Below, piece after piece: positions 9,082 through 62,629 of a stretch of 64,000 bases of DNA. The translations under genes were made by a program, and so were the position numbers. How positions within the stretch are numbered: position 1 is the stretch's first letter; every line of letters begins with the position of its first letter. Source of the DNA: Magnetococcales bacterium (GTDB taxonomy: Bacteria > Pseudomonadota > Magnetococcia > Magnetococcales > JADFWT01); the NCBI GenBank assembly GCA_015233785.1, contig JADFWT010000001.1:27752-91751 (forward strand), given 5' to 3'. The notes under the pieces were generated by a model. The model had not been told where the DNA came from. It did no database searches and worked only from the letters and a program-made list of their open reading frames with translations.

Positions 9082-9109
9082 TTGATCCCTTCCAGTATCT
9101 TAATAATTT
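9082..9109 (+). promoter_or_regulatory. Candidate sigma70-type promoter for the first TPR-GT41 array
   Basis: TTGATC (9082-9087), a 16-nt spacer, then TAATTT (9104-9109), about 24 nt upstream of the ATG at 9133. This is a sequence match only. Confidence 0.3.
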
Positions 9110-9132
9110 GTACCCAATGCTCACTGACCGCG

Positions 9133-11358
9133 ATGCCGCTCATGAATCCAATGGCCCCGAATCAAAACCAGCCCAATGCCCATCAGGCCCTCTCCATAGC
9201 AGATGCCCTGGCTCTGGCCATGCAGCACCACCAAAGTGGGAACCTCCCTCAGGCCGAAGCGCTTTATCGGCAGATTCTGGCCACGGACCCCCACCACCCG
9301 GATGCCCTCTATCTACTCGGCATCCTGGCCCAACAGGCAGGGCAACCCACTCAGGCGCTATCCACCCTCAAGCAACTAACCCGGCGCCAACCCAAGTTGG
9401 GACAGGCCTGGTGCGCTTTGGGCGGCGTCCAGAGGGATCTTGGCCAGCTTGCTCAGTCACTTAAAAGCTTGCGCAAGGCACTCTCCATAGCCCCACAGGA
9501 TGCAGAGAGCCGCATGAGCCTCGGCATCACGCTGGGGGCCATGCAACGACTGCCGGAAGCCAAAGCCGCCTTTGATCGCTGCCTGCAGATCGAACCCAAC
9601 CACGCCGAAGCCCACAACAATCTTGGGCTGATCCAACAGCAGCAGGGAGAAACGGAAAAGGCACTGGCCAGCTTTCAACGCGCCATTGAGTTGCAACCGG
9701 ATATGGTGGCGGCCATGAACAACCTGGGAAGCGTTCTACATGCCCAAGGCGCGCTCGAAGAGGCCCGACAGTGGCTGGAAAAAGCGTTGGCCATCCAGCC
9801 GGACCATGGAGATGCCCTGCGCAATACGGGTCATCTATTGCGGGACATGGGGCATGACGACGAGGCCCAGAGCCGATACCAACAAGCACTGGACCTCTAC
9901 CCCCAATGGCCGGAACCCCATGATGATCTGGGCCGACTGCACCAGAAGATGAAACGATTCGATCAGGCCATCGCCTGCTATCAGGAGGTTCTCTCCCGTC
10001 AGCCGGACCATACTGAAGCCCACCACAATCTCTCGGTACTCTTCACCCACTTGGGCCAGTTGGATCAAGCGCTGAATCATGCCCAACAGGCCGCCGAACA
10101 TAGCGGGCTGTTTCGGCGCTGGAAAAATCTGGTCAATCTGATGCTGCTGCACCCCGATACGGACCATCAGCCACTCTATGCGACCTGCCGTGAGGCAAGC
10201 CGACGGGCGGTGATCAAACCCAAACGCAAGGCGGCCCGCCCACCGTCCCCATCCGGCAGAGTGCGCATCGGCTATCTCTCCTCCGATTTTCGTGATCATC
10301 CGGTAGGACGCAACGTACTGCCGCTCATCACCCACCATGATCGGAACAGCTTTGAAATATTCTGCTACGCCGAACCCCGGCAACAAGATGACATCACCAG
10401 GCAGTTCAAGGAGCTGGCGGATCATTGGCGCCCTATCCAAAACCTGAGCGACCAGGAAGTAGCCCGGCAGATCACCAGCGATGGCATCCACATGATGATC
10501 TACCTGGGGGGCATGTTTGACGAAAACCGCTTCACCATCGCCGCCCTACGTCCGGCCCCGCTCCAGCTCAGCTTTCACGGCGGCTCAACCACCGGATTGG
10601 ATGCCATGGACTACTGGATTACCGACAGCACCCTGCACCCTCCCAATCAGAGCCGGGAACAGTTCTCCGAATCGTTGCTGCGTCTGCCGGTTTTCTACAA
10701 CTACCCGCCCCTGGCCGAGACCCCGGATGTGACCCCTCTTCCAGCTCTGGAGAGAGGCTTTATCACCTTTGCCTCCCTTAACAATCCCGACAAGATCAAC
10801 GATGCCGTGATGGCCGCCTGGGGGAAGATTCTCAGCCAGCTCCCCAAGGCCCGTCTGCTGCTTAAATATCGGGATCAACTGGCCATTCCCACGCTCAAAA
10901 TGAACCTCCTTGCCCGCTTCGAAGCCCAAGGCATCTCTCCAGACCGCCTCACGCTGCTCAGCGGCCACGAAGATCACGCCACCCATCTGGCCCACTACCA
11001 GCAGGCCGATATCGCGCTGGACACCTTCCCCTGTACCGGCGCCACCACCACCTTTCAGGCACTCTGGATGGGCGTGCCGGTGGTGACACTGCTTGGCGCG
11101 CGCTTTATCGGGCGCATGGCCGGGGATATCGTGGTGCATGCCGGCGTGACTGAACTGGCTGAGTTGGCCGTTGAGACTCCTGCGGAGTATGTATCTCGTG
11201 CTGTCGCGCTTGCGGAGGATCTGCCCCGATTGGCCGGACTGCGGCATCATCTCCGAGCCGCCCTCTGCGCCTCCCCCATCTGCGATGGTCCCACCTATGC
11301 CAGGCAGATGGAGCAGGCCCTGCATACCATCTGGAATCAACGGGAGAATCAGGCATGA
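9133..11358 (+). CDS. TPR repeat protein fused to GT41 (OGT/SPINDLY-like) glycosyltransferase domain, paralog 1
   Basis: The ORF is open from TTG 9082, but I prefer ATG 9133 (MPLMNPMAP) by alignment with paralog N-termini. TPR units carry AEAHNNLG-type motifs. C-terminal domain motifs RIGYLSSDFRDHPVGRNVLPL and DIALDTFPCTGATTTFQALWMGVPVVTLLG align by eye with human OGT ([39 protein letters not shown]). Confidence 0.85.
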   Translation: MPLMNPMAPNQNQPNAHQALSIADALALAMQHHQSGNLPQAEALYRQILATDPHHPDALYLLGILAQQAGQPTQALSTLKQLTRRQPKLGQAWCALGGVQRDLGQLAQSLKSLRKALSIAPQDAESRMSLGITLGAMQRLPEAKAAFDRCLQIEPNHAEAHNNLGLIQQQQGETEKALASFQRAIELQPDMVAAMNNLGSVLHAQGALEEARQWLEKALAIQPDHGDALRNTGHLLRDMGHDDEAQSRYQQALDLYPQWPEPHDDLGRLHQKMKRFDQAIACYQEVLSRQPDHTEAHHNLSVLFTHLGQLDQALNHAQQAAEHSGLFRRWKNLVNLMLLHPDTDHQPLYATCREASRRAVIKPKRKAARPPSPSGRVRIGYLSSDFRDHPVGRNVLPLITHHDRNSFEIFCYAEPRQQDDITRQFKELADHWRPIQNLSDQEVARQITSDGIHMMIYLGGMFDENRFTIAALRPAPLQLSFHGGSTTGLDAMDYWITDSTLHPPNQSREQFSESLLRLPVFYNYPPLAETPDVTPLPALERGFITFASLNNPDKINDAVMAAWGKILSQLPKARLLLKYRDQLAIPTLKMNLLARFEAQGISPDRLTLLSGHEDHATHLAHYQQADIALDTFPCTGATTTFQALWMGVPVVTLLGARFIGRMAGDIVVHAGVTELAELAVETPAEYVSRAVALAEDLPRLAGLRHHLRAALCASPICDGPTYARQMEQALHTIWNQRENQA

Positions 11359-13538
11359 ATCCGCAACAGCCCATCACCCTTGAGCAGGCGTTGCAATGGG
11401 CCATCGACCACCATCAGGCGGGACGCTTTCAGGAAGCGGAGTCGCTCTATCGTCAGATTTTAAATGCCGACCCCAACCAGCCGGATGCCCTGCATCTACT
11501 CGGTGTCATGGCCCATCAGGCGGGGCAGGCCCAGGATGCCGTGCCGATGATCCAAAAGGCTCTGGCCCTGCGCCCCAGGCAGGCGGAAATGCATAACAAT
11601 CTTGGCAACGCCCTCCGGGATCTCGGCCAGATTGAAGCCGCGATTCAAAGCTGTCGTCGAGCCATTGCCCTCAAAAGACGCTTCCCAGAGGCGTACAACA
11701 ATCTGGGTACCGCGCTCTTGCAGCAAGGGGCCTTTCAGCAAGCCGTAAAGCAATTTCGCAAGGCACTCTCCCAGCAGCCGAACTATGTCGCCGCTCACAA
11801 AAACCTCGGCGTTGCCTTGCGCTCCCTGGGCAACACGGACGCGGCCATCGCCAGCCTGCGCCGGGCATTAAACCTCAAGCCCCACGACCCGGAAATTCAT
11901 ATCAATCTCGGCGGACTGCTCACCGAAACGGCACGCTTCGATGAAGCCATAACACATCTGAATCGAGCCGCAGAACTGGCCCCGGATCACCCGGAGAATC
12001 TACACAATCTGGCCCTATACCATCAGAGACAAGGGTGCTTGGCAGAAGCCATCTCCCACTATCACAAGGTGCTGGCGCACCGCCCCAAGGATGCCGAAGC
12101 ACACTTTAATCTGGCCCAGGCTCTGGATAAAAATCGACAATTGGAAGAGGCCATTCAGAGCTACCGGAAGGCCCTCACCTTGGATCCTGGCCATCTGGGC
12201 AGCCATGATAACCTGGCCATTGTGCTGAGCCGAACCGGTATGCTGGATGAAGCCTTGATCCACGCCGAACAGGCCGCCGCCGGCGGGCAGCCCGCCATGA
12301 TTAAAAACTGGCTCAACCTGCAACTCGCCCATCCCGAGACCACATATGATGCACTGTTTAAAGCCTGCGTGAACTGGCGCGATGCGGCCGTGGATCCGGC
12401 CTGCAAACCCTTGATCCGTCAGATGCCCAAGGAGACTCCACCCCGGCTAAAAATAGGCTACCTCTCCTCTGATTTTCGTGACCATCCGGTGGGGCGTAAC
12501 GTCGCGCCGCTGCTGATGAACCACGATCACGACCGGTTTGAAATCACCCTCTACGCCGAACCTCCCAGAGAGGACCACTGGACCGAGCGATTCCAGAAGG
12601 CCGCTGACCGATGGCAAAATATTGCCGGTCTCAGCGACCTTCAGGTAGCCCGGCGTATCCGCAAAGACGGCATCCACATCATGGTCTATCTGGCCGGGCT
12701 ATTCGATACCAACCGCGTACAGGTGGCCGCCCACCGCCCAGCCCCCATTCAGGTGAGCTACCACAGCGGCACCACCACCGCCCTGGAGCAGATGGATTAC
12801 TGGTTCACAGATGAGGCTCTGCACCCGCCGGAGGCTACCTCGGAACAGTTCAGCGAGACCCTGTTCCGCCTGCCCTGTTTTTACGCCTATCCAGAGCCGG
12901 AGCAGGCCCCACCCATCGAACCGCTCCCAGCGCGCCAAAATGGCTACGTCACCTTTGCATCCCTGAATAATCTAAGTAAAATCAATAATAAGGTTATCCA
13001 ACTATGGGCCGCAATTCTGCATGGTGCAGCCGATGCCAGACTGATGCTTAAATATCGGGATCACTTGGATATTCCCTATCTTAAACAATGCATCATAGAG
13101 AGATTCCAGAAGCACGATATCGATACCGAACGGCTGATTCTGATCAGCGCTTTGGAGGACCACCCAAGCCATATGGCCCGCTACCATCAGGCCGACATCG
13201 CCTTGGATCCCTTCCCTTTTACCGGTGCCACCACCACGTTTCAGGCGCTCTGGATGGGGGTGCCGGTGATCACCTTACTGGGAAAGAACTTTATTGGACG
13301 CATGGCAGGGGATATTTTAATCCATACCGGACTGAAAGAACTGGCAACCGAAAGCAGCGACGCCTATTGTAAACAGGCTCTGGCGCTGGCCGGCGACCTG
13401 GATCGCCTGGAGAGGCTACGTCATACGCTGCGCGATCAACTGCTCGCCTCTCCCATATGTCATGAAAATCAATACGCCCAGAGTGTAGAAAGCAGTTACC
13501 AAACTATGTGGCGACAACGAATGAAAGCGAGAACCTGA
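11355..13538 (+). CDS. TPR-GT41 (OGT-like) glycosyltransferase, paralog 2
   Basis: 727-aa ORF with an ATGA start/stop overlap with paralog 1. Motifs: KIGYLSSDFRDHPVGRNVAPL and DIALDPFPFTGATTTFQALWMGVPVITLLG. Confidence 0.9.
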   Translation: MNPQQPITLEQALQWAIDHHQAGRFQEAESLYRQILNADPNQPDALHLLGVMAHQAGQAQDAVPMIQKALALRPRQAEMHNNLGNALRDLGQIEAAIQSCRRAIALKRRFPEAYNNLGTALLQQGAFQQAVKQFRKALSQQPNYVAAHKNLGVALRSLGNTDAAIASLRRALNLKPHDPEIHINLGGLLTETARFDEAITHLNRAAELAPDHPENLHNLALYHQRQGCLAEAISHYHKVLAHRPKDAEAHFNLAQALDKNRQLEEAIQSYRKALTLDPGHLGSHDNLAIVLSRTGMLDEALIHAEQAAAGGQPAMIKNWLNLQLAHPETTYDALFKACVNWRDAAVDPACKPLIRQMPKETPPRLKIGYLSSDFRDHPVGRNVAPLLMNHDHDRFEITLYAEPPREDHWTERFQKAADRWQNIAGLSDLQVARRIRKDGIHIMVYLAGLFDTNRVQVAAHRPAPIQVSYHSGTTTALEQMDYWFTDEALHPPEATSEQFSETLFRLPCFYAYPEPEQAPPIEPLPARQNGYVTFASLNNLSKINNKVIQLWAAILHGAADARLMLKYRDHLDIPYLKQCIIERFQKHDIDTERLILISALEDHPSHMARYHQADIALDPFPFTGATTTFQALWMGVPVITLLGKNFIGRMAGDILIHTGLKELATESSDAYCKQALALAGDLDRLERLRHTLRDQLLASPICHENQYAQSVESSYQTMWRQRMKART

Positions 13539-15652
13539 TGAGCGAAGAGGATTTTGTTGAGCGGGAAATGTCCGTTGAAAGTGCGTTGTCGATGGGCATC
13601 TCTTACCATCAGAAAGGCAACCTGCAAAAAGCGGAGTGGCTCTATCGGAAGATTCTTGAAAAGGTTCCCGACAATCCCGATGCCCTCCACTTTTTGGGCG
13701 TCATCGCCTATCAGGTTAAACAGCCGGATGTCGCCATTCCGCTGATTAAAAAAGCCATTAAAATACGCCCCAATCACGCCGAATCCCATAGCAACCTGGG
13801 GGCGGCACTGCGGGATGCCGGCCAACTGGATGCATCTATCGCCAGCTGTCGCAAGGCACTGGAACTGCGTGCTAATTTCCCTGAAGCCCAGAACAATCTC
13901 GGTGCTGCTCTACTGCGTCAGGATAAATTGAATCGGGCCAGCGCGGCCTTTCGAACCGCCATTGCCCAAAACCCGGAATACCATGCGCCGCATAAAAATC
14001 TGGCCAATATTCTGCACCGTCAGGGCCGCTCGACAGAGGCCGCACTGAGCCTGGAAAAAGCCATCAATCTGAGCCCTAACGACCACGAATCTTACTGCAA
14101 CATGGCCACCATTCTTTCCGAACTCGGCCAGTTTCAAGCGGCCGTTGATCACGCTCAAAAAGCACTGAATCTCGCACCAACCAACGTCAGCGCCCACAAC
14201 ACCATGGGCCTCATCCTCAAAAAAGTCGGCATTCTTGATGACGCCGAAATTGCGTTTCGGAACGCCATCAGCATTGCCGACGGAGCAGGAATCAGCCATA
14301 GCAACCTGGGTGAGATTCTGCTTTCTCAGGGCCACCAGAAAGAGGCGCTGGCCTCCCATAAACGCGCACTGGATATCAAATTACGTGTCAACAACGTTAA
14401 AAACTATCTTCGCGCTTTGCACTATCAAGAGGGCCTGAGCAACGAAAAGCTCTATCGAAAATGCCGCAAGTGGACCAATAAACTGGTAAAATCCGAAACC
14501 ATCACCCCCATGCCTCCACCGCTGATGAAGGATAGCCCCGAGCGGCTGCGCATCGGCTATCTCTCCTCCGATCTGCATAATCATCCCGTGGCGTTCAACA
14601 TGCTTCCGGTGATGGAGAATCACAACCATGACCAGTTTGAGATCTTTATCTACTACGACTCACCCATAAGTGACACCCCCGACTCATCCATGCATGGCAC
14701 GCTGACAGATAGTTTCCAGCAGTATGCCGACCACTGGCGAACAGTGGGAGCGATCAATGACCAACAGATAGCCGAGAAGATCCGCGCAGACCGAATTCAT
14801 ATCATGGTCTACCTGGCCAGTACGTTTGATAATAACCGATTGCTGGTCCCGGCCTACCGGCCCGCACCGATTCAAGTCAGCTATCATAACTGCTCCTCCT
14901 CCACCATCAACCAGATGGATTACTGGCTCACCGACAGCGTGATCCATCCCCCTCTGGATACCGAAGAGCTTTTCTCCGAGGATCTGGTGCGGATGCCCCA
15001 ATTCTACATCTATCCACCGCCCATCAACCTGCCCGACCCAGGGCCGTTACCCAGTAAGAAAAACGGTTACATCACCTTTGTCTCCCTCAACAATCCATCC
15101 AAAATCACCGGGCAGGTGGTGGAGACATGGGGCCGCATCCTCAAGGCGGTACCCGATGCGCGGTTATTGCTGAAATATCGCAACTTTTATAAAAGCAAGG
15201 CGGTGCTCAAGCGCCTGAAAGAACGCCTCGAAGGGATGGAGATAGATCCAGAACGGCTGGAGTATCGCACCGCCATGGACGACCATCCCGACCATCTTGC
15301 CAACTATCTGGATGCCGATATCGCCCTGGATCCCTTCCCATTTACCGGGGCCACCACCACCTTCCAGGCGCTCTGGATGGGGGTGCCGGTGGTCACATTA
15401 ATGGGCAAGCGCTTCATCAGCCGCATGGCCACCGACATCATCGTCCATGCCGGACTTGAAGAACCCCTTGGTGCTGATAACCTGGATGAATATGTTCGCA
15501 AAGCCGTCGCACTGGCAGAAAACCCCACCCGCTTAGCCGAGCTGAGATCCTCTCTTAGGGAACGCATTGCACAATCTCCACTTGTGGACGGTCCACGTTA
15601 TACCCGTAACTTGGAGAAGACCTATCTAGAACTCTGGGACAAACGGCGCTAA
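13538..15652 (+). CDS. TPR-GT41 (OGT-like) glycosyltransferase, paralog 3
   Basis: The ORF is open from 13508. ATG 13538 (MSEEDF) overlaps the upstream TGA by 1 nt, so I prefer it. Motifs: RIGYLSSDLHNHPVAFNMLPV and DIALDPFPFTGATTTFQALWMGVPVVTLMG. Confidence 0.85.
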   Translation: MSEEDFVEREMSVESALSMGISYHQKGNLQKAEWLYRKILEKVPDNPDALHFLGVIAYQVKQPDVAIPLIKKAIKIRPNHAESHSNLGAALRDAGQLDASIASCRKALELRANFPEAQNNLGAALLRQDKLNRASAAFRTAIAQNPEYHAPHKNLANILHRQGRSTEAALSLEKAINLSPNDHESYCNMATILSELGQFQAAVDHAQKALNLAPTNVSAHNTMGLILKKVGILDDAEIAFRNAISIADGAGISHSNLGEILLSQGHQKEALASHKRALDIKLRVNNVKNYLRALHYQEGLSNEKLYRKCRKWTNKLVKSETITPMPPPLMKDSPERLRIGYLSSDLHNHPVAFNMLPVMENHNHDQFEIFIYYDSPISDTPDSSMHGTLTDSFQQYADHWRTVGAINDQQIAEKIRADRIHIMVYLASTFDNNRLLVPAYRPAPIQVSYHNCSSSTINQMDYWLTDSVIHPPLDTEELFSEDLVRMPQFYIYPPPINLPDPGPLPSKKNGYITFVSLNNPSKITGQVVETWGRILKAVPDARLLLKYRNFYKSKAVLKRLKERLEGMEIDPERLEYRTAMDDHPDHLANYLDADIALDPFPFTGATTTFQALWMGVPVVTLMGKRFISRMATDIIVHAGLEEPLGADNLDEYVRKAVALAENPTRLAELRSSLRERIAQSPLVDGPRYTRNLEKTYLELWDKRR

Positions 15653-17743: not shown

Positions 17744-19642
17744 TCAGGTGAGAAACTCACGCCAGAGCGGCTCCAGAGAGTCCCGATAGTTCTCCCAGGC
17801 CATCACCGAACTGCTGTAGATGGGCTTACGAACCTGACTGACGCTGGCTGTGGTCACCACCCGCTTGTTCTTATGAAACGCCATGCAGCGCGCATCCCAC
17901 CCCAGGTTGCAGTGCTCCAGAAGCAGGCGGGTCTCCCGCTCCTGATCCGCCACCAGCGCCTCGTAAGAGAGATCATAAATTCTGCCGGGCGCCACCCGAT
18001 GCCAATGCGCCATCAACGACTGATAGGCCCGGTAGTAACGCCCCAACTCGGAGAGGTGGTAGGCGTAGGGATGCGGCTCGCTGAACAGGGTCTTGAAGAT
18101 GGAAAAACAGGTGCCCATGGGATGGCGCACGCAGTGGATAATCTTCGCCTTGGGCAGCGCCGAGAGAATCCATCCTATATGCATATAATTATTGGGCATC
18201 TTATCAACAATATAGGGCGACTCAGGCGCACAGGCATGCAGTGCCTCCAGATAGCGCTGGCCCATGGTGCGAATCTGCTCGCCACTCAAGGCCCGGCTAT
18301 CCTGCCGCCAGCTCACCGGCGGACCAACTCGCCCTCCTGAGTTATGAGAAATCTCCCGCCAGAGCTTCTGCACCTCCAGCGGCATCTGTACCCGCTCTCC
18401 GGCGCCATACACCTGCGGGTGGCTGGAGAGTATCTGCTCAGCCAACGTGGTGCCGGAACGAGGCATGCCGAGAATAAAAATCGGTGCTTTATCCTCAACA
18501 CCGAACCTCTGCCAGCGAGCCAGGAAATCGGCATCCATCATCTCTTGGAGAAATCCAAAGCGCGCCTCGTCCTCCGTGACAAAGTAGCGATGACGCGTCC
18601 GCTCCATGCGATTGCCCGCCGCCAGATGATCAAAGGCGCGACGATGATCCCCAAGATCCTCATGCAGCTTGCCTAACGCAAAGGCTAGATTGGTGCGCTC
18701 AAAACGGCTGATGCCGCGCTTGGTGTAGAGCCGCTGCATCGCCTCGGTATAATGATTGGTCTCCCGCATCCGCCCGCAGGAGACCATGTGCCGATAGGCG
18801 ATGGCGCAAGAGGGATCGATGGTGACCGCCTGCTCAAAAGCTGTCCGTGCCTCCTCCAGACGCCCCAACCCTTTGAGTGTCACCCCAAGATTGTTGTAGG
18901 TGGCGGCTTGTTGCGGGTTCAGCTCCAGTGCCTGCCGATAGCACACCTCCGCCTCTTCCAGTCGCTCCAGCATCCGTAATGTATTGCCGAGATTACCCAG
19001 GGCATCCGGGTAGTTGGGACGTATCTTCAACGCTTGACGAAAATGGTCGTGGGCCTCCTGGAAGCGGTTTTTGGAGACCAAAAGATTGCCCAAATTATTA
19101 TGGGCAGCAGCCAGAGTGGGCTTGTGATGAATGGCGCGCTCAAAACTGCGCATCGCCTCTTGAATCTGACCGCGATCCTTATGGGTCAGCCCGAGATTGT
19201 TGTGGGCCTCCGCCAGATCGGGCTTAAGAACAATCGCCCGATGCAAGGCCACCCCCGCCGCCTCCAAACGCCCCTGAAGACGCAACAGATGGCCCAAATT
19301 GTTATAGGCCATGGGGTTGTTGGGCTGTAGCGCCAACGCCTTGCGGTAGCAGGCCATGGCACCGCTTCTATCTCCCAAATCAAAACGCGTGATGCCAAGA
19401 TTATTCAGCGCCGGAGCCATCTTCGGATTGGCGGCCAGGGCATATTCAATCAACCGCCTGGCATCCTGCATCCGGCCCTGCTGCCGAGCAATGAGACCCT
19501 GTCTGTGCAGCGCCTCGGCATAGTGGGCGTCCGCCGGTGAGATGGCCTCAAATCGGGCCAGCGCTTCATCCAATGCCCCCTGCTGATGCAGCGCCATTCC
19601 CTGCTGAAAAATCGCCTGAAAGTTGGACGCCTGGGCCACCAT
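17744..19642 (-). CDS. TPR repeat protein fused to a sulfotransferase domain (TPST/RaxST-like PAPS-binding motifs)
   Basis: The ORF is open to 19714. I prefer ATG 19642 (MVAQASNF), which has GGGGGAG about 7 nt upstream. N-terminal TPRs are followed by FILGMPRSGTTLAEQIL (5'-phosphosulfate-binding loop) and IIHCVRHPMGTCFS (3'-phosphate motif region). Confidence 0.85.
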   Translation of the reverse strand: MVAQASNFQAIFQQGMALHQQGALDEALARFEAISPADAHYAEALHRQGLIARQQGRMQDARRLIEYALAANPKMAPALNNLGITRFDLGDRSGAMACYRKALALQPNNPMAYNNLGHLLRLQGRLEAAGVALHRAIVLKPDLAEAHNNLGLTHKDRGQIQEAMRSFERAIHHKPTLAAAHNNLGNLLVSKNRFQEAHDHFRQALKIRPNYPDALGNLGNTLRMLERLEEAEVCYRQALELNPQQAATYNNLGVTLKGLGRLEEARTAFEQAVTIDPSCAIAYRHMVSCGRMRETNHYTEAMQRLYTKRGISRFERTNLAFALGKLHEDLGDHRRAFDHLAAGNRMERTRHRYFVTEDEARFGFLQEMMDADFLARWQRFGVEDKAPIFILGMPRSGTTLAEQILSSHPQVYGAGERVQMPLEVQKLWREISHNSGGRVGPPVSWRQDSRALSGEQIRTMGQRYLEALHACAPESPYIVDKMPNNYMHIGWILSALPKAKIIHCVRHPMGTCFSIFKTLFSEPHPYAYHLSELGRYYRAYQSLMAHWHRVAPGRIYDLSYEALVADQERETRLLLEHCNLGWDARCMAFHKNKRVVTTASVSQVRKPIYSSSVMAWENYRDSLEPLWREFLT

Positions 19643-19717
19643 GACACGCTCCCCCTGCTGAAGTGATCGAAAAAGAGATATTAACACGCATGACGACGCG
19701 GTTGAATGCGACAATTA

Positions 19718-24653: not shown

Positions 24654-24762
24654 TCGTGGAATCATAAGGCCCATCTCTTTAAACGACTGAAAAGAACGCT
24701 TAGGATGAGTGCCTATCGAACCCATAGACCGTTCACCACCGCTGGAATCATCCGAGCCCACC

Positions 24763-56909: not shown

Positions 56910-58982
56910 ATGAACCAACAACGTCTATCGATCCCGGAAGCGATCCAACACGCCTGCCAACGCCACCAGAGTGGTGAATTGGAGGCTGCCGAACAGATCT
57001 ATCGTGATATTCTCAAGGCAGACCCGCACAATGCCGATGCCCTGCACCTGCTGGGCGTGCTGGTGCAGCAAAAAGGGGATCCTGCACAGGCTCTGGGCTG
57101 GATTCGGCAGGCTATCGCCGTCATGCCCAACCAACCGGCCTTTCATATCAACCTTGGCGAGGTGTTTCGAGCCATGGGAGAGCCTCAAGAGGCGATTCCA
57201 TGCTATGAAGCGGCCCTGAAGCTGGATGACAATATGGCTCAGGCCCACTTCAACATGGCCCACGCCCTCCAGCAACTCAACCAAGCCGAACAGGCCATCA
57301 CCAGCTTCCATCAGGCGCTGGCACTGGACCCCACCCTGCTGGGGGCCTGGAACGATCTGGGCAATCTTCATAAACGCAGGGGATCACTCAAAGAGGCCAT
57401 TACCTGCTACCAAAAGGTGTTGGAGCAGCACCCGGACCACTTGGAGACACTCTATAACCTGGCCAACACCCTGAGTGCCGCCGGAGAGTTGGATGAAGCG
57501 GCTAGGCTCTTCACGCGGGCGATTGCCCTGAAACCGGGGTTTTTCCAGGCCCAGTGCAACCTTGGCCACACTCTGCGGGAAATGGGCCGACTGGATGAGG
57601 CGGCAGAGGGGTTGGAACAGGCTCTGACCACACGCCCTGATGATCCACGCATTCTTAATAATCTGGGTAATGCGCGTCTGGCGCTGGGAGAGCTGGATCA
57701 AGCCGTCACATGCTACAACAAGGCGCTGACGCTGGGGCGTGACTTCAATATGATGAAGAACCTCATCAGCGCCATGCTCTACCATCCAGGCACCCGCAAC
57801 GATACCCTGTTCGAAACCTGTCGCAGCCAGATGCGCGCTTGCCAACCCACCATGCAGATGGCCACCCTATCGCCCCCCAAGGGGCCTATTCATGGTAGAA
57901 TGCGCATCGGCTACCTCTCCTCCGACTTTCGCGGCCACCCGGTGGCAGACAATATTCTGCCGCTCCTGCAACACCACGACCCGCAACAGGTGGAGATCTT
58001 CGCCTATGTGGAGACCGCCCAAAGCGATGCGGTTACCAAAGAGCTGCGTCGCCATGTACACCACTGGCGCCCCACCGATGGCCTTAGCGATGAACAGGCC
58101 GCGGAGATGATCCGCCAGGATGGCATTCATGTCATGGTCTATCTGGCTGGGCTGTTCGATACCAATCGACTGATGATCGCCAGCCATCGCCCGGCTCCGG
58201 TGCAGGTGAGCTTTCACAACGGCTGCACCACCGCCATGGATCAGATGGACTTCTGGATCAGTGACGCCCTGCTCCATCCACCACAGGCTACCCAGGAGCG
58301 CTTTTCCGAGACGCTCTGTCGACTGCCGGTCTTCTACACCTTTCCGCCTCCCAAGGAGACCCCGGATGTGGGGCCGTTGCCAGTGGATAATAATGGCTTC
58401 ATCACCTTCATTTCACTCAATAATCCTGCAAAAATTACCGCGCCTACCGTACATCTTTGGTCGGAAATTCTCACCGCGCTGCCCGACGCCCGTCTGATTC
58501 TTAAATACCGTAACCATCTGGAGAATGAATCTCTACGACAGCGGCTGTTCAACCAATTCTCAGAGCGCGACATACACCCCGAGCGGCTGGAGATGATCAG
58601 CGCCCGAGACCGACACCAACACCATCTATCCCTCTACAACCGAGCCGATATTGCCCTGGATCCGTTCCCTTTTACCGGAGCCACCACCACCTTTCAGGCC
58701 CTCTGGATGGGGGTGCCGGTCATCTCCTTGTTGGGGGACCGCTTTATCAGCCGCATGGCGGGGGATATCCTCTTTCATGCTGGTCTTGCCGAGCTGCTGG
58801 CCGACACGCCGGAACGCTATGCAGAAAACGCCGCCGCGCTTGCCGGAAACACAACCCGGTTGCGAACACTGCGAGCCGGACTCCGAGACCAACTCAAGGC
58901 ATCGCCGCTGCTGGATGGTGCCACCTATGCCCGCCATATGGAGCAGGCCTACCGCATGATGTGGAACCATCAAAGTGGCTGA
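56910..58982 (+). CDS. TPR-GT41 (OGT-like) glycosyltransferase, paralog 13
   Basis: 690-aa ORF. Motifs: RIGYLSSDFRGHPVADNILPL and DIALDPFPFTGATTTFQALWMGVPVISLLG. Confidence 0.9.
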   Translation: MNQQRLSIPEAIQHACQRHQSGELEAAEQIYRDILKADPHNADALHLLGVLVQQKGDPAQALGWIRQAIAVMPNQPAFHINLGEVFRAMGEPQEAIPCYEAALKLDDNMAQAHFNMAHALQQLNQAEQAITSFHQALALDPTLLGAWNDLGNLHKRRGSLKEAITCYQKVLEQHPDHLETLYNLANTLSAAGELDEAARLFTRAIALKPGFFQAQCNLGHTLREMGRLDEAAEGLEQALTTRPDDPRILNNLGNARLALGELDQAVTCYNKALTLGRDFNMMKNLISAMLYHPGTRNDTLFETCRSQMRACQPTMQMATLSPPKGPIHGRMRIGYLSSDFRGHPVADNILPLLQHHDPQQVEIFAYVETAQSDAVTKELRRHVHHWRPTDGLSDEQAAEMIRQDGIHVMVYLAGLFDTNRLMIASHRPAPVQVSFHNGCTTAMDQMDFWISDALLHPPQATQERFSETLCRLPVFYTFPPPKETPDVGPLPVDNNGFITFISLNNPAKITAPTVHLWSEILTALPDARLILKYRNHLENESLRQRLFNQFSERDIHPERLEMISARDRHQHHLSLYNRADIALDPFPFTGATTTFQALWMGVPVISLLGDRFISRMAGDILFHAGLAELLADTPERYAENAAALAGNTTRLRTLRAGLRDQLKASPLLDGATYARHMEQAYRMMWNHQSG

Positions 58983-60723
58983 ACAGACCCTCACCCTGCC
59001 GGAGGCCCTGGCCCTGGCACAGCAACACCATAACGCCGGAGAACTACCCCAGGCCGAGCAGATCTATCGGCAGATACTTCAGGCAGAGCCCAACCAGCCC
59101 GATGCACTGCACCTTCTCGGTCTGCTGGCCCAGCAGGTGGAACAGTTTGAACTGGCCATCCCGCTGATTCGTCGGTCACTGGAGATCAACCCCCATAACG
59201 CCGATGCCCACTGCAACCTTGGCAACGCCTTTCGAGCCGTGGGAGACCTTGCCGAAGCCGTTGCCAGTTGCCGAAGCGCCATCGCTCTGGAACCACAGAT
59301 GGCCGAGGCGCATAATAATCTTGGAAACGCCCTGCGGGATTTGGGGGATCTGGACGGTGCGCTGGAGAGCTTCAGTACAGCTTGCCAATGCCAGTCAAAG
59401 GCTGGTTGCGGCGACTTCAATATGGTGAAAAATCTCATCAGTGCCCTACTCTATCAGCCCGATCTCAGCCATCAGGCGCTGTTCGACAGATGCGCTGGAG
59501 AGATGGCCGCCTGTCGTCCGCCCCATGCTCGGCACAGCCTCTCCAAAATTGACAATGAATGCCGCTCAATACCCGCTAAATCGCCTCCTGAACAGGACGA
59601 TTCGGCAGGCAAAATACGCATTGGCTATCTCTCCTCCGATTTTTACAACCACCCGGTGGGTCAAAACATCCGACCCCTACTGGCCCATCATGACCACAGC
59701 CGGTTTGAGATATTCTGCTACGCCGAGCGCCCCCAAGGAGATGAGATCACCGAAGAGCTGCGCCGCCATAGTGACCATTGGCGGGACACCCACTTAATGA
59801 ACGACGCTCAAACAGCCAACCAGATCCGCCAGGACGGCATTCAGATTATGGTCTATCTGGCCGGTTTTTTTGATGCCAACCGACTGATGGTGGCCACCTA
59901 TCGCCCGGCTCCGGTTCAGGTGAGCTTTCACAACCTCACCAGTACCACCCTTCCCGAGATGGACTACTGGCTTACCGATGAGCTGCTTCACCCTACGGAA
60001 GACACCTATGAATTATTCTCGGAGCAGCTCTGCCGCCTGCCCAATTTCTACATCTATCCAACCCTGGACCAAGCCCCATCGGTTGGGCCTCTTCCAGCGC
60101 TGAAAAACGGCTTTATCACCTTTGCATCGTTTAATAATCCCACCAAGATTAACAACGCGGTCATCCGACTTTGGTCGCATATTCTCAAGGCGGTTCCAGG
60201 TTCCCGGCTACTGCTGAAATACCGAAACCATCTCGCCAACAGCGCCCTTCAGGAGCGGTTGATCCAGGGATTTACCCGGCATGACATTCCCGCACACCGC
60301 CTGGAGCTAATCAGCGCCCGTGACCAGCACCGTGCCCACTTGGACCACTACAACCGCGCCGATATCGCCCTGGATCCGTTCCCATTCACTGGGGCCACCA
60401 CCACCTTTCAGGCCCTCTGGATGGGGGTGCCGGTGGTGACGCTCAAAGGGGAACGTTTTATTCATCGCATGGCAGCAGATATCGTCACCCATGGCGGTTT
60501 TCCTGAACTGGCTGTGGACTCCCACCTGGATTATCTGGCAAAGGCAGTGCAGATGACTAACAATTGGCAACAATTGCAGATAATCAGAGCAGAACTTCGA
60601 GAGAAGATCTCAGCATCGCCTTTGTGCGATGGTCTTCAATATGCAAAAAATATTGAGGCTCTCTATGCCACCATGAAGCATAAAAAAGCACCTCCAGATC
60701 CCCCCACCAACACCACCACATGA
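58975..60723 (+). CDS. TPR-GT41 (OGT-like) glycosyltransferase, paralog 14 (shortest TPR array)
   Basis: 582-aa ORF with a GTG start overlapping the upstream stop by 8 nt. The N-terminus (AEQTLTLPEALALAQQHHNAGEL) aligns with the other paralogs. Motifs: RIGYLSSDFYNHPVGQNIRPL and DIALDPFPFTGATTTFQALWMGVPVVTLKG. Confidence 0.85.
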   Translation: MAEQTLTLPEALALAQQHHNAGELPQAEQIYRQILQAEPNQPDALHLLGLLAQQVEQFELAIPLIRRSLEINPHNADAHCNLGNAFRAVGDLAEAVASCRSAIALEPQMAEAHNNLGNALRDLGDLDGALESFSTACQCQSKAGCGDFNMVKNLISALLYQPDLSHQALFDRCAGEMAACRPPHARHSLSKIDNECRSIPAKSPPEQDDSAGKIRIGYLSSDFYNHPVGQNIRPLLAHHDHSRFEIFCYAERPQGDEITEELRRHSDHWRDTHLMNDAQTANQIRQDGIQIMVYLAGFFDANRLMVATYRPAPVQVSFHNLTSTTLPEMDYWLTDELLHPTEDTYELFSEQLCRLPNFYIYPTLDQAPSVGPLPALKNGFITFASFNNPTKINNAVIRLWSHILKAVPGSRLLLKYRNHLANSALQERLIQGFTRHDIPAHRLELISARDQHRAHLDHYNRADIALDPFPFTGATTTFQALWMGVPVVTLKGERFIHRMAADIVTHGGFPELAVDSHLDYLAKAVQMTNNWQQLQIIRAELREKISASPLCDGLQYAKNIEALYATMKHKKAPPDPPTNTTT

Positions 60724-60754
60724 CGTTCTGCATAAGACAATCTGCATTCGAATC

Positions 60755-62629
60755 ATGGATCAACCCACAAGCAATCACGGTGAAATGATTAACAGCACGC
60801 CACCAAACAATCCCCAAACCATGACCCTGGAAGAGGCCCTCAACCACGCTCTGGGTCTGCATAATGCCGGGAACCTCGCCGAGGCCGAACAGATCTACCG
60901 GCAGGTTTTGGCGGTGGAGCCAAACCACGCCATCGCCCTGCACCTGCTGAGCGTCATCGCGCTCCAAGCCGGACGGCCCGACCTTGCAGAACCCCTGATG
61001 CATCAAGCCCTGGCCTCCAACCCAGACTTGGCAGAGACCCATATCAATCTGGCCGACCTGCTGCACCAGCGTGGAGAGCACAAAGCCTCCGTGAACCACT
61101 GCCGACGCGCCATCGAACTAAATCCGCAGTTACCGGAAGGACATAACAACCTGGGCAACGTGCTGCGCACCCTGGGACAGCTTAATGAATCCGTCGACGC
61201 ATGCCGGCAGGCCATCAGGTTGCAACCCGACTTCAACAAGGCCTATCACAATCTCGGCAACGCCCTACGGGATCTGGGATCCATGCATGAGGCCATGACC
61301 AACTACCGCAAAGCTCTGGATCTTGGACCTATATCGCTAAACATCGTTAAGAGCTATCTAAGCGGGCTGCTCTACCTGACGGACGTTACGCCGGATGAAC
61401 TGTTCGACACCATTCGCCGGGAGATGGCCCCGCTGATCGCCGAAGCCTCCCCTCTATATCAAGATCAACCCCCGTCAAAGAGCAGAGCCACTCCACCACT
61501 GCGTATCGGCTATCTCTCATCAGACATGAACAATCACCCGGTGGGTCGCAATGTGCTGCCGCTTCTGCTGCACCACAATCCCGAAGCTTTTGAGGTCTAC
61601 GCCTACTCCGATGCCCCCTTTCACGACCCAATCAGTGCCCGGATTAAAGAAGCGGTGCATGGCTGGCGAGAGACGCGGTCACTCTCGGATCGACAGGTGG
61701 CAGAGTTGATTCATCAAGACGGCATCCAGGTGATGATCTATCTGGCCGGACTGTTCGACGGCAACCGCGATACCGTAGCGGCCCATCGTCCGGCCCCTAT
61801 TCAGGTGAGCTTTCACAGTGGAACCACAAGCGGCCTGGAGACCATGGACTACTGGCTGACCGATCGCGTTATCCATCCACCAGATGAGACCCAGGAACGA
61901 TTCTCCGAGCAGCTCTACCGACTTCCGGTATTCTACAACTATCCCCCGCTGGAGCCCGCCCCGGAGATCAACCCACCGCCGATGGAGAAGAACGGCTTCA
62001 TCACCTTCGCCTCCTTTAACAATCCCACCAAGATTAACGGTAAGGTGATGGATCTGTGGGCACGGATTCTTAAAGCCCTCCCGGATGCCCGATTGATGAT
62101 CAAATATAAATACGTGCTGGGTGATCCGCAGATGCAGGAACGCATGGTGCACCAGTTCGAACGGCGGGGCGTGGTAGCCGGCAGGCTAACGCTGATTGGC
62201 GTACAGGAGAATCTCATCGACCATCTGGCCTACTACCACCAAGCCGATATCGCCCTGGATCCCTTTCCGTTTACCGGTGCCACCACCACCTTTCAGGCCC
62301 TCTGGATGGGCGTGCCGGTGGTGACGCTGATGGGAGATCGCTTCATCGGACGCATGGCCGGAGATATTGTGATCCACGCCGGGTTGGAGGAACTGGCCGC
62401 CCCATCCCCCGATCACTACGTCGCAGCCGCCTTGAAGCTGGCCGATGATCCCGTCCATCTACGCCACCTGAGAGAGACATTGAGAGAGCGACTTAAATCT
62501 TCACGCCTCTGTGACGGCGCATCCTATGCCCGCTCTGTAGAACACGCCTATCAGAGCATGTGGAAGAAGCAAGAGACCGATCACCCTCATCTCTCCCACA
62601 CTCAACCGCCCCCCTCTACCCTTGCCTAA
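60755..62629 (+). CDS. TPR-GT41 (OGT-like) glycosyltransferase, paralog 15
   Basis: 624-aa ORF. Motifs: RIGYLSSDMNNHPVGRNVLPL and DIALDPFPFTGATTTFQALWMGVPVVTLMG. Confidence 0.9.
   Translation: MDQPTSNHGEMINSTPPNNPQTMTLEEALNHALGLHNAGNLAEAEQIYRQVLAVEPNHAIALHLLSVIALQAGRPDLAEPLMHQALASNPDLAETHINLADLLHQRGEHKASVNHCRRAIELNPQLPEGHNNLGNVLRTLGQLNESVDACRQAIRLQPDFNKAYHNLGNALRDLGSMHEAMTNYRKALDLGPISLNIVKSYLSGLLYLTDVTPDELFDTIRREMAPLIAEASPLYQDQPPSKSRATPPLRIGYLSSDMNNHPVGRNVLPLLLHHNPEAFEVYAYSDAPFHDPISARIKEAVHGWRETRSLSDRQVAELIHQDGIQVMIYLAGLFDGNRDTVAAHRPAPIQVSFHSGTTSGLETMDYWLTDRVIHPPDETQERFSEQLYRLPVFYNYPPLEPAPEINPPPMEKNGFITFASFNNPTKINGKVMDLWARILKALPDARLMIKYKYVLGDPQMQERMVHQFERRGVVAGRLTLIGVQENLIDHLAYYHQADIALDPFPFTGATTTFQALWMGVPVVTLMGDRFIGRMAGDIVIHAGLEELAAPSPDHYVAAALKLADDPVHLRHLRETLRERLKSSRLCDGASYARSVEHAYQSMWKKQETDHPHLSHTQPPPSTLA

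Follow-up and report, generated by a model that had tools for sequence, protein, structure and literature searches.

Fifteen TPR-GT41 glycosyltransferase genes in a 53-kb Magnetococcales island with a possible role in flagellin glycosylation

Introduction

Cultured Magnetococcales carry 14 (MO-1) or 15 (MC-1) flagellin genes, and in MO-1 every one of the 14 is expressed and carries heavy glycosylation (PMC7175107). In the flagellin glycosyltransferase FlmG the TPR domain binds flagellin (PMC7591256), the TPR-GT41 protein Ogt of Synechococcus is needed for pilin glycosylation (PMC9306852), and FkbM and GT41 proteins are both known from enterobacterial islands for flagellin glycosylation (PMC4875605). 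For the plant GT41 enzyme SPINDLY, roles have been assigned to active-site residues, among them the essential K665, and a bulky residue at the position of human OGT C917 has been argued to be incompatible with UDP-GlcNAc (PMC9715652). Here we analyze a 64-kb window, the whole stretch of DNA studied, from a 93-kb contig of an NCBI Magnetococcales MAG. The window contains an island of 17 TPR-enzyme genes: 15 encode GT41 proteins, one a TPR-sulfotransferase and one a TPR-arginine-methyltransferase. We propose, with a probability of roughly 0.45, that the GT41 proteins are cytoplasmic flagellin O-glycosyltransferases whose acceptors are chosen by divergent TPR arrays.

Results

Exactly 15 complete genes combining TPRs with a GT41 domain (PF13844) lie within ~53 kb between positions 9082 and 62629 (Table 1); their only NCBI label is "tetratricopeptide repeat protein". 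All 15 ORFs match Pfam TPR families and Glyco_transf_41 with E values of 1e-38 to 1e-55, and a profile built from the 15 C-terminal domains finds, across all six reading frames of the window, 15 domains and no more, each of full length (profile positions 1 to ~360), and no GT41 fragments or pseudogenes. The proteins are 582–782 aa long with ~5–11 TPRs each, and their alignment reveals a conserved N-terminal head (HHQAGxLxxAExxYRQIL...P...DALHLLG) and three motif subfamilies: a main subfamily of 12 copies (DHPVG/GATTTFQALWMG), subfamily 2 with two copies (HSAASTFG/GG(V/I)TSLEALRMG) that share 62% identity in the GT domain, and a single-copy subfamily 3 (ARHVLVYS/GGRTSAESLWMG). Genes of the left array are joined by an ATGA overlap at 11355, a TGATG at 13536–13540 in which the ATG of paralog 3 and the upstream TGA have one base in common, and a TAA followed by ATG at 15650–15655; junction gaps in the right array are 72, −8 and 31 nt, the second being the 8-nt overlap of paralogs 13 and 14. 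Gene positions and lengths, the shared head, the subfamilies and the junctions of both arrays all match those described in an earlier sequence-only reading of this DNA. The longest ORF begins at TTG 9082 for paralog 1, for which ATG 9133 is the likelier start, and at GTG 13508 for paralog 3; the NCBI version of paralog 8 (MBF0587525.1, 769 aa) is 13 codons shorter.

Table 1. Coordinates of the GT41 paralogs and neighboring genes in the window
Feature	Coordinates	Strand	Description	Evidence
TolC-type OEP	3..1631	-	type I secretion set	
Thr/Ser/Asp-rich acidic ORF	6600..7595	-		
TPR-GT41 paralog 1	9133..11358	+	main subfamily	PF13844 (E 1.2e-44), TPR families
TPR-GT41 paralog 2	11355..13538	+	main subfamily; ATGA overlap with paralog 1; MBF0587513.1	Pfam
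TPR-GT41 paralog 3	13538..15652	+	main subfamily	Pfam
TPR-GT41 paralog 4	15653..17731	+	main subfamily; start codon abuts paralog 3 stop	Pfam
TPR + Sulfotransfer_3 protein	17744..19714	-	convergent with left array	PF13469 (E 1.6e-50)
TPR-GT41 paralog 5	22425..24653	+	subfamily 2; donor-gating His; GGVTSLEALRMG	Pfam, active-site map
TPR-GT41 paralog 6	24709..26988	+	subfamily 2; donor-gating Gln	Pfam, active-site map
B12-binding radical SAM enzyme	26985..28469	-	convergent with paralog 6, 4-nt overlap	PF04055, PF02310
TPR-GT41 paralog 7	30453..32444	+	main subfamily	Pfam
TPR-GT41 paralog 8	34704..37052	+	main subfamily; longest copy (782 aa)	Pfam
TPR-GT41 paralog 9	39494..41599	+	main subfamily	Pfam
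TPR-GT41 paralog 10	42114..44294	-	subfamily 3 (GGRTSAESLWMG)	Pfam, tree, active-site map
FkbM-family methyltransferase	44419..45354	+	divergent from paralog 10	PF05050
TPR-GT41 paralog 11	50262..52163	+	main subfamily	Pfam
TPR + PRMT7/PRMT9-like protein arginine methyltransferase	52168..53904	+		Pfam PrmA, PRMT_C
TPR-GT41 paralog 12	54546..56837	+	main subfamily; opens right array	Pfam
TPR-GT41 paralog 13	56910..58982	+	main subfamily	Pfam
TPR-GT41 paralog 14	58975..60723	+	main subfamily; shortest (582 aa, ~5.5 TPRs)	Pfam
TPR-GT41 paralog 15	60755..62629	+	main subfamily	Pfam

A sequence search of the Protein Data Bank with paralog 8 returned SPINDLY (7y4i, 8dtf) as the best match with an E value of about 1e-105 (6e-106); the OGT enzymes of human, X. 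campestris and T. terrenum (the last 5djs, E 1.5e-78) were also matched. The AlphaFold model of paralog 14 (pLDDT 91.6, pTM 0.90) likewise has SPINDLY as its top Foldseek match (8dtf_A, E 2e-42, TM 0.87, 29% identity). These matches and Pfam bear out the GT41 assignment of the C-terminal domain made in the sequence-only reading; its wording "O-GlcNAc-transferase-like" was imprecise, since the intervening domain of metazoan OGT is missing from these proteins, which stand nearer to SPINDLY. Equivalents of SPINDLY K665, H495, H728, D740, G746 and T749 are invariant in 15/15 copies, in agreement with the active-site His and Lys recognized earlier, and since every copy keeps the catalytic Lys, both His and the Thr, none looks decayed. 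Judged from these sequence features, the 15 genes almost certainly encode active GT41 protein glycosyltransferases. The donor-gating position (human OGT C917, SPINDLY Y744) is Phe in 12 of the 15 proteins and Cys in paralog 1 only, and with Phe replacing the OGT Cys in most copies UDP-GlcNAc is not the default expectation. N[LMIF][GAS] motifs, up to seven per protein, repeat at an exact 34-residue spacing.

Redundant or decaying copies with little individual function, left by a recent tandem duplication, might be expected from the tandem arrangement and the one architecture common to the 12 main copies. This explanation is extremely improbable and already largely refuted: none of the 15 copies is truncated and their catalytic residues are invariant, the copies are old (GT domains 48–58% identical, TPR parts ~39% identical, dS saturated), and in the tree the 15 paralogs are interspersed with proteins of other Magnetococcales MAGs and have thus been retained across lineages. 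Calculated per domain, dN/dS is below 1, though dS is saturated, and main-subfamily pairs show a dN of 0.55–0.79 in the TPR part against 0.33–0.38 in the GT domain, a ~2-fold difference.

We compared the island with related loci, comprising the matches listed in a genome scan from which 78 genome loci were fetched; this listing holds no Magnetococcales locus, and flagellar linkage is therefore seen only in relatives 38–53% identical. The sequence-only reading had called the gene density exceptional, but arrays of 4–7 GT41 genes per 16–21 kb are frequent among the 78 loci fetched, with many alphaproteobacterial MAGs carrying them, and the matches listed also include another MAG with about 17 copies across four loci and fusions that carry as many as six TPR-GT41 modules in one polypeptide. 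Arrays of this kind are thus commonplace, one half of what that reading had named as grounds for refutation; as to the decay it had coupled with this, the 15 copies are intact. Its other suggestion, combinatorial hetero-oligomers, would fit both the translationally coupled genes and the fused polyproteins elsewhere.

Homologues of the paralogs are linked to flagellar genes. One or more of flagellin, FlbT, FlaF, FlgE, FlgD, FliK, FliF or DUF1217 is encoded at 18 of the 80 related loci listed, and 62 carry no flagellar gene. Six GT41 genes are followed by two flagellin genes at locus L039, four GT41 genes lie between flanking flagellin genes (four in total) at L015, and flagellin genes likewise occur at L005, L012, L029 and L078. 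In the tree, paralog 10 is sister to GT41 genes immediately upstream of flagellin in L005, L012, L015 and L039. The two closest non-Magnetococcales relatives with readable neighborhoods both sit among flagellar genes, one (P0039) between FliF/FlgE/FlgD/FliK and flagellin-FlbT-FlaF and the other (P0048) between FlgE and FliF-FliG; around three more distant ones (P0049, P0016, P0062) the context is unrelated. Since arrays are common in related bacteria and often stand beside flagellin genes, flagellin decoration is the likeliest job of the island, and flagellins are tentatively its main acceptors. The suggestion in the sequence-only reading that multi-flagellin bacteria could need many such enzymes gains real support from the Magnetococcales source of the DNA, the 14–15 glycosylated flagellins of cultured members (PMC7175107) and the homologous arrays that adjoin flagellin, FlaF/FlbT, FlgE and FliF. 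A correspondence of roughly one enzyme for each flagellin is quite unlikely: GT41 and flagellin gene numbers differ in L039 (6 against 2) and agree in L015 (4 against 4), and the match of 15 enzymes with 14–15 flagellins may be coincidence.

Within the 64-kb window we found no flagellin or other flagellar gene and no nucleotide-sugar biosynthesis gene, including those of nonulosonic-acid synthesis, and scans for σ28 and σ54 promoters did not support the flagellar reading. Several other modifying enzymes are encoded among the paralogs. The TPR module of the sulfotransferase is 30–37% identical to the GT41 paralogs' TPR modules (blastp against TPR regions), and the arginine methyltransferase gene, which starts 5 nt past the paralog 11 stop, encodes a protein matching PRMT9 (6pdm, E 5.7e-50) and PRMT7 (4c4a, E 1e-49). 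Homologues of the FkbM protein (phmmer, E ~1e-49) are embedded in 5–7-gene GT41 arrays at four related loci (L014, L016, L018, L061). The B12-binding radical SAM enzyme is a possible accessory modifying enzyme.

Signaling genes are also interspersed in the island, with Pfam matches identifying three class III nucleotide cyclases, a response-regulator-GGDEF-EAL protein and a cNMP-binding HlyD. The island could accordingly be viewed as a signaling hub for general intracellular O-glycosylation, in which OGT/SPINDLY-like enzymes modify many cytoplasmic regulators and TPR variants widen the substrate range. Besides these signaling genes, such a role draws on the closest characterized homologue, SPINDLY, whose targets number in the hundreds and are nucleocytoplasmic proteins, on the same kind of TPR module in the eukaryote-like PRMT7/9-like and sulfotransferase modifiers, and on the housekeeping contexts of several distant relatives. 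We consider it unlikely, as the nearest relatives with readable neighborhoods sit in flagellar operons, flagellar genes accompany 18/80 related loci listed, no OGA-like O-glycan hydrolase needed for reversibility was seen by Pfam in the window's larger ORFs, and XcOGT and TtOGT lacked O-GlcNAc activity on bacterial lysates or the enzyme's own proteome (PMC9715652).

A complete type I secretion set of a TolC-type OEP, an ABC transporter with a C39-like domain and an HlyD borders the island, and an acidic Thr/Ser/Asp-rich ORF has no assigned function. Both could point to other exported filament or surface acceptors, such as a type I substrate or adhesin, the MO-1 flagellar sheath protein, type IV pilins or an S-layer. 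HMW1C-type GT41 enzymes glycosylate secreted adhesins (PMC3012730), the MO-1 sheath protein is glycosylated (reference 32 of PMC7175107), and pilin glycosylation depends on Synechococcus Ogt (PMC9306852). Such acceptors are nevertheless doubtful here: no pilin, RTX/adhesin or S-layer gene was recognized in the 64-kb window, the match to the NCBIfam model for N-glycosyltransferases is weak (24 bits, where the cut-off is 1000), and the inspected related neighborhoods show no noted linkage to secretion-system or pilin genes, unlike the flagellar linkage.

Discussion

Each paralog is best read as a soluble GT41 enzyme of the SPINDLY/bacterial type, in which a TPR superhelix is joined to a GT-B catalytic domain of two lobes and the intervening domain is absent. 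OGT, SPINDLY and FlmG suggest by analogy how such an enzyme might act: the superhelix with its OGT-like Asn ladder may thread or dock an extended acceptor segment in the cytoplasm, and the catalytic domain would pass a monosaccharide from its nucleotide-sugar donor to Ser/Thr, with flagellins, before their export, as the likeliest acceptors. The 12 main copies, with one donor-site signature and TPR parts diverging ~2-fold more, probably attach a common sugar but differ in the flagellin or site that receives it; for the three outliers, which have two other active-site signatures, a different donor or a role in glycan extension is probable. Further modifications might come from the FkbM methyltransferase, the B12-radical-SAM enzyme, the TPR-sulfotransferase and the TPR-arginine-methyltransferase.

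Arabidopsis SPINDLY (SPY; 7Y4I, 8DTF), a GT41 protein O-fucosyltransferase, is the best sequence match over both TPRs and the whole catalytic domain as well as the best structural match. The paralogs share its order of TPR array, connector and GT-B domain without an intervening domain and keep K665, H495, H728 and T749. They differ at Y744 (Phe, Cys, His or Gln), T747 (Ala or Gly) and, in the main subfamily, S496 (Pro, as in human OGT) and E567 (Tyr or Phe), and a GDP-fucose donor is therefore not predictable; they are also bacterial, multi-copy and have fewer TPRs (~5–11 against 11). Human OGT has the same catalytic Lys and His and a TPR-lumen Asn ladder at 34-residue spacing, and full-length OGT sequences match at E ~1e-104, largely via the TPRs. 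The paralogs lack its intervening domain, replace C917 with Phe in 12/15 copies, and the paralog 14 model superposes poorly on whole OGT (rmsd 10–12 Å, TM ~0.6).

Among bacterial enzymes, XcOGT (2JLB), TtOGT (5DJS) and Synechococcus elongatus Ogt are likewise cytoplasmic TPR-GT41 proteins, and an aromatic residue again occupies the donor-gating position of XcOGT and TtOGT. As PDB matches of paralog 8 they are weaker than SPINDLY (E 1.5e-78 for TtOGT, ~1e-35 for XcOGT), and none of the three is described in large gene arrays. Ogt, which adjoins pilin filament-subunit genes and is needed for pilin glycosylation, pairs pilin with GlcNAc, and the acceptors and donors of solved bacterial GT41 enzymes differ or are not known. 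The FlmG class of Caulobacter and Brevundimonas is similar in logic, with an N-terminal flagellin-binding TPR domain, a C-terminal GT-B domain that sets the donor, a cytoplasmic location and several flagellin paralogs served by one enzyme. FlmG differs in being single-copy, reportedly confined to Caulobacterales, and in transferring pseudaminic or legionaminic acid, whose nonulosonic-acid synthesis genes the Magnetococcales window lacks. Enterobacterial flagellin islands combine flagellin-linked GT41/SPINDLY enzymes (COG3914) with FkbM methyltransferases (PMC4875605), but hold one to three glycosyltransferases, most GT41 enzymes there have a methyltransferase domain, and they lie within the flagellin locus, whereas the Magnetococcales island has no flagellar gene in 64 kb. 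OGT/SPINDLY-type arrays themselves are common in related bacteria.

Fifteen intact TPR-GT41 genes

All 15 TPR-GT41 genes that a sequence-only reading had placed between positions 9082 and 62629 (named here by start coordinate) are present there as long open reading frames (ORFs). Each product matches Pfam PF13844 (Glyco_transf_41) at 132-189 bits, where the curated threshold is 25 bits, in two stretches corresponding to the N and C lobes, and carries an array of TPR_1, TPR_2 and related families N-terminal to the catalytic domain (E down to 1e-55). A profile built from an alignment of the 15 C-terminal domains and run against all six-frame ORFs of at least 40 aa recovered exactly 15 members, each spanning the full profile, and no partial GT41 copies in the window. 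The protein alignment bore out the conserved N-terminal head, the variable TPR block and three signature groups: a main subfamily of 12 copies with DHPVG.../GATTTFQALWMG, the 22425 and 24709 pair with HSAASTFG/GG(V/I)TSLEALRMG (subfamily 2), and the single 42114 copy with ARHVLVYS/GGRTSAESLWMG (subfamily 3). Gene junctions are likewise as first described, with an ATGA overlap at 11355, TGATG at 13536-13540 and a TAA followed directly by ATG at 15650-15655 in the left array (9133-17731), and gaps of 72, -8 and 31 nt in the right array (54546-62629). The first gene of the left array likely starts at ATG 9133. The 34704 product is 100% identical to NCBI protein MBF0587525.1 and the 11355 product corresponds to MBF0587513.1.

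Searches of the Protein Data Bank by sequence and by structure place these proteins closest to Arabidopsis SPINDLY. The best sequence match is SPINDLY (7Y4I/8DTF, E about 1e-105), in an unbroken alignment from the TPRs through the C-terminus, followed by full-length human OGT (largely via its TPRs), Thermobaculum OGT 5DJS (E 1.5e-78) and Xanthomonas XcOGT. We modeled the shortest paralog with AlphaFold2 from a 33-sequence alignment (mean pLDDT 91.6, pTM 0.90), and the model reveals 11 paired helices ahead of the GT domain. SPINDLY structures are the top Foldseek matches (E 2e-42, TM 0.87, rmsd about 3 Å), with TtOGT (TM 0.79/0.87) and XcOGT (TM 0.72/0.76) lower and metazoan OGTs superposing poorly overall. 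The C-terminal domain, assigned to GT41 by eye, is thus GT41-like in both searches and the family assignment stands. The catalytic domain spans 360-384 aa, aligns continuously with SPINDLY and lacks the metazoan intervening domain; the 15 proteins are of the SPINDLY/bacterial type of GT41. NCBIfam holds no model specific to them, and the sole match is NF049992 (HMW1C/NGT N-glycosyltransferase), which 11 of the 15 hit far below threshold (best E 2.2e-08; 23.7 bits for the first member, with a cut-off of 1000). We dropped an HMW1C-type N-glycosyltransferase on that score and on the presence of TPRs, in place of which the HMW1C/NGT type has an all-α AAD domain.

Three active-site signatures in one catalytic scaffold

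We mapped active-site residues onto the paralog alignment from the SPINDLY structure paper (PMC9715652). The essential phosphate-binding lysine (K665 in SPINDLY, K842 in human OGT) and the active-site histidine (H495/H498) are invariant in all 15 proteins, as are the base-stacking histidine (H728/H901), the equivalents of SPINDLY D740 and G746, and T749/T922. Variation is found at the donor-gating position (SPINDLY Y744, human OGT C917), argued to set the size of sugar that fits (PMC9715652), which is Phe in 12 copies, Cys only in 9133, and His and Gln in the 22425/24709 pair. At the equivalent of SPINDLY S496 the 12 main copies have Pro, both subfamily-2 copies Ser and subfamily 3 Val; the main subfamily keeps Thr at the T748 equivalent, where subfamily 2 has Val/Ile and subfamily 3 has Arg. 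All three resulting signatures look catalytically competent. Judged by these residues, the donor-site pattern is compatible with a small sugar and not diagnostic of fucose, and UDP-GlcNAc would not be the obvious donor for most copies, as we infer from the SPINDLY study (PMC9715652). With a probability of about 0.95, we interpret the 15 proteins as active cytoplasmic GT41 protein O-glycosyltransferases.

Ancient divergence concentrated in the TPRs

Among the 12 main copies the GT domains share 48-58% pairwise identity (mean 53%) and the TPR regions 39% on average, with N-terminal parts of 212-416 residues, or roughly 5-11 repeats. The subfamily-2 proteins 22425 and 24709 are 62% identical to each other, and 42114 is about 34% identical to all others. 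The dN/dS ratio per domain, proposed earlier as a check, is uninformative because dS is saturated (1.1-3.9); relative dN is usable and is about twofold higher in the TPRs than in the catalytic part. N[LMIF][GAS] motifs recur at an exact 34-residue spacing, up to seven per protein; in OGT, such spacing is the signature of the TPR-lumen asparagine ladder that grips extended peptide backbones.

Set against 78 loci of other genomes, the 12 main copies group in a single star-like clade of a neighbor-joining tree. Once proteins of other Magnetococcales metagenome-assembled genomes (MAGs) are added, they interleave with those of the window; one of them, P0025, has the 11355 copy as its partner (60% identity). 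The interleaving therefore points to an old expansion shared within the order and not to a recent burst in this genome, a signal that is indicative and, with short internal branches, not robust. Redundancy or decay of the copies is very improbable, as they are full length, mutually divergent and invariant in their catalytic residues and have counterparts interleaving from other MAGs of the order; recent duplication or decay was dropped for copies this old and intact.

GT41 arrays and polyproteins in other bacteria

Scanned with motifs from the C-terminal domain alignment, a collection of one genome per GTDB species yielded at least 587 confirmed relatives. The best 80 of these (78 loci) come mostly from Rhodospirillales and other alphaproteobacterial MAGs, with no Magnetococcales locus among the matches listed. 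Within loci of at most 21 kb we counted seven GT41 domains in L016 and L061, six in L039, five in L014, L018 and L066, and three or four in many others, and the MAG SRP124364_co1_94 holds about 17 copies, some partial, over four loci. Single ORFs with at least five catalytic domains occur in L046 (8909-21073), L074 (1208-18000) and L075 (2-11116). Among 1.84 billion cluster representatives (50% identity clustering), a profile search returned 25,434 at E ≤ 1e-30; the highest scores go to polyproteins that join two to six complete TPR-GT41 modules, including the 3,732-aa protein P0121 with six. Such giant polyproteins (P0121-P0126) reach 3,855 aa and come from a range of bacteria, Desulfatirhabdium and Pelobacter MAGs among them. 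No relative turned up in a metagenome scan for which one full-length paralog served as query.

The density in the window, one GT41 gene per 3.6 kb, is therefore equaled or surpassed elsewhere: 15 copies on a single contig are toward the upper extreme and not unique, the family to which the proteins belong as ordinary members is very large, and the earlier description of the density as exceptional was overstated given these arrays, the 17-copy MAG and the polyproteins. We argue that the polyproteins are fused counterparts of the gene arrays, with neighboring modules acting together. Bacterial GT41 tandem arrays and multi-module polyproteins thus appear widespread and, in the literature searched, essentially undescribed, as are arrays of this density and any GT41 expansion in Magnetococcus; database annotation of such proteins is largely just "tetratricopeptide repeat protein".

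Companion enzymes on the same TPR scaffold

The island also encodes a TPR-sulfotransferase and a TPR-arginine methyltransferase, and the window therefore contains 17 TPR-enzyme genes. The sulfotransferase TPR module resembles those of the GT41 paralogs (30-37% identity) and shares their HHQAG-like head and periodic AHNNLG motif, and thus one scaffold type is carried on three different catalytic domains. The methyltransferase gene begins 5 nt past the stop codon of a GT41 gene; human PRMT9 likewise has N-terminal TPRs. Further genes encode a B12-radical-SAM enzyme, an FkbM methyltransferase, a LexA-like repressor and, at the right edge, RecQ. The Mn2+ riboswitch and cation transporter are an ordinary, expected pairing, and the tRNA-Trp call is probably a false positive, with no tRNA reported there by Rfam.

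Features of the window other than the GT41 genes
Feature	Position	Strand	Evidence or note
HlyD-type membrane fusion protein of type I secretion system, N-terminal cyclic-nucleotide-binding domain	4490-6373	+	
331-aa ORF, Thr/Ala/Asp/Gly/Pro-rich, HDDDDDDDHDDDGGDHGHHGHH stretch	6600-7595	-	Extreme composition; no Pfam match; adjoins type I secretion genes
TPR + Sulfotransfer_3 protein	17744-19714	-	Sulfotransfer_3 E 1.6e-50
Class III cyclase, ODP di-iron sensor-cyclase	19718-22171	-	
Class III cyclase, membrane-cyclase	28760-30388	+	
GDT1/TerC-type cation transporter gene	32529-33239	-	Riboswitch directly upstream
Mn2+ (yybP-ykoY) riboswitch	33196-33360	-	61.5 bits, E 1e-13
Class III cyclase, GAF-GAF-cyclase	37075-39195	-	
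Response-regulator-GGDEF-EAL ORF	45382-48075	-	
tRNA-Trp call, 93 nt	46547-46639	-	ARAGORN; wholly within GGDEF-EAL ORF
463-aa protein, signal peptide, short GGKALD(A/S)S repeats	48846-50237	+	Long predicted coiled-coil-like stretches; no Pfam match; directly upstream of GT41 gene 50262
TPR (about 8) + PRMT7/PRMT9-like arginine methyltransferase	52168-53904	+	PDB PRMT9 6pdm E 5.7e-50, PRMT7 4c4a E 1e-49

The three class III adenylate/guanylate cyclases are paralogous and scattered among the GT41 genes. A type I secretion set comprises a TolC-type OEP, an ABC transporter with a C39-like domain, and the HlyD protein fused to a cNMP-binding domain; this fusion would suggest cNMP-regulated secretion. 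The compositionally extreme 331-aa ORF, if a real gene, is a candidate secreted substrate or metal-binding acidic protein. Cyclase and c-di-GMP genes within the island speak for a general, OGT/SPINDLY-like role of the GT41 proteins in intracellular signaling, which we consider unlikely.

Flagellar linkage of homologs

The window lacks flagellin, pilin, adhesin and nucleotide-sugar genes, as well as any other flagellar gene; a flagellar connection emerges from related loci. Pfam-confirmed flagellin genes adjoin the arrays in L005, L012, L015, L029, L039 and L078: in L039 six co-oriented GT41 genes run directly into two flagellin genes, and four flagellin genes flank the four GT41 genes of L015. 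Of the non-Magnetococcales relatives whose neighborhoods could be read, the closest two both lie inside flagellar clusters, the P0039 gene between FliF-FlgE-FlgD-FliK and flagellin-FlbT-FlaF and the P0048 gene between FlgE and FliF-FliG. Homologs with a flagellar location include those of L079, L081, L005, L015, L039 and others. Three more distant relatives occur in unrelated gene contexts. Using FliF, FlgE, FlgD, FliK, flagellin, FlbT, FlaF and DUF1217 sequences from the related loci as queries, we found at least one flagellar gene in 18 of the 80 related loci among the matches listed and none in the other 62; by rough estimate, with no computed control, a random 20-kb window would hold such a gene a few percent of the time. 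In the tree, the sister group of 42114 consists of GT41 genes from four loci that stand immediately ahead of flagellin genes. Homologs (E about 1e-49) of the FkbM methyltransferase next to 42114 lie within arrays of 5-7 genes at four loci.

A DUF1217 (PF06748) protein recurs beside GT41 arrays in L016 (15097-17439, minus strand), L024, L039 and L061, where its neighbors include flagellin matches and an NAD-dependent sugar epimerase/dehydratase. Promoter scans of the window gave σ54 matches no commoner than chance and σ70 and terminator matches not above shuffled expectation; a σ28-like excess was set aside as mostly an artifact of repeated DIALDPFPF-coding sequence read on the opposite strand.

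The Magnetococcales strains MO-1 and MC-1, with 14 and 15 flagellin genes, had the highest counts known at the time (PMC7175107), and neither the published review nor the literature searched links any glycosyltransferase or glycosyltransferase family to these flagellins. The proposal that a multi-flagellin bacterium would need many such enzymes gains ground from the flagellar linkage of homologs and from the multi-flagellin lineage, and is tentative for the organism of the window. We tentatively regard flagellins as the main acceptors, at a little under even odds. Some other exported protein, whether a type I secretion substrate, a glycosylated sheath protein or a pilin, is an improbable target to set beside them; the window holds a type I secretion set and no pilin gene, and a Synechococcus TPR-GT41 Ogt is needed to glycosylate the pilin encoded adjacent to it (PMC9306852).

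A proposed model for acceptor choice

If flagellins are the acceptors, the 12 main copies, which share donor-site residues and have fast-diverging TPRs of different length, would plausibly transfer a single type of sugar to different flagellins or sites, and the three outlier copies, the FkbM and radical-SAM enzymes, the TPR-sulfotransferase and the TPR-PRMT would supply further chemistry. Neighboring paralogs may work together, compatible with the tight gene coupling here and the fused polyproteins elsewhere. Extending this to a substrate code is a long shot: the TPR-GT41 paralogs, about 15 in number, would keep one conserved donor site but vary in their TPR lumens, and each would recognize particular members or sites of about 15 flagellins. 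Under such a code the paralogs might form hetero-oligomers, as translational coupling and polyproteins of up to six modules would suggest, and the same TPR scaffold would steer the sulfotransferase and the PRMT9-like methyltransferase to the same substrates.

If flagellins are indeed the acceptors, these genes would supply the candidates so far missing for the heavy glycosylation that the 14-15 flagellins of magnetotactic cocci undergo, and a substrate code would further imply combinatorial modification of the filament in what is the most complex flagellar apparatus known among bacteria. What deserves attention is the pairing of a multi-flagellin lineage with a multi-paralog, TPR-diversified glycosyltransferase set, and the presence of a TPR-guided sulfotransferase and arginine methyltransferase in the same island. 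Were flagellins not the acceptors, the island would still represent a compact bacterial set of eukaryote-like protein modifiers (GT41, PRMT7/9-like, sulfotransferase). Twelve enzymes that share a catalytic site and vary in their TPR arrays could be used to learn how TPR superhelices select acceptors in OGT, SPINDLY and FlmG.

Comparison with known glycosyltransferase systems

Metazoan OGT has an intervening domain and a small Cys917 that admits GlcNAc, whereas all 15 copies lack the former and 14 of 15 lack the cysteine; on these two differences we dropped a true O-GlcNAc transferase, and the label O-GlcNAc-transferase-like does not hold in its strict sense. SPINDLY-type O-fucosyltransferases are marked by the gating residue Tyr744, Ser496 and Thr747/Thr748 in contact with GDP-fucose, and in 12 window copies the tyrosine gives way to Phe, also aromatic. 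Enterobacterial flagellin glycosylation islands include GT41/COG3914 enzymes together with FkbM methyltransferases (PMC4875605). In Caulobacter FlmG, a TPR and GT-B protein of a class said to be confined to Caulobacterales, the TPR domain binds all tested flagellins and the GT domain sets donor specificity (PMC7591256; bioRxiv 2022.03.25.485807), and flagellin binding by Maf-1 is likewise via a TPR domain. FlmG depends on CMP-pseudaminic or CMP-legionaminic acid, and no Pse or Leg biosynthesis genes are found in the window. The TPR plus GT-B architecture is common to FlmG and the 15 proteins, and a place in or beside a flagellin/FlaF/FlbT locus, as genes of the FlmG class have, is not seen within the window but is seen for homologs in several related loci.
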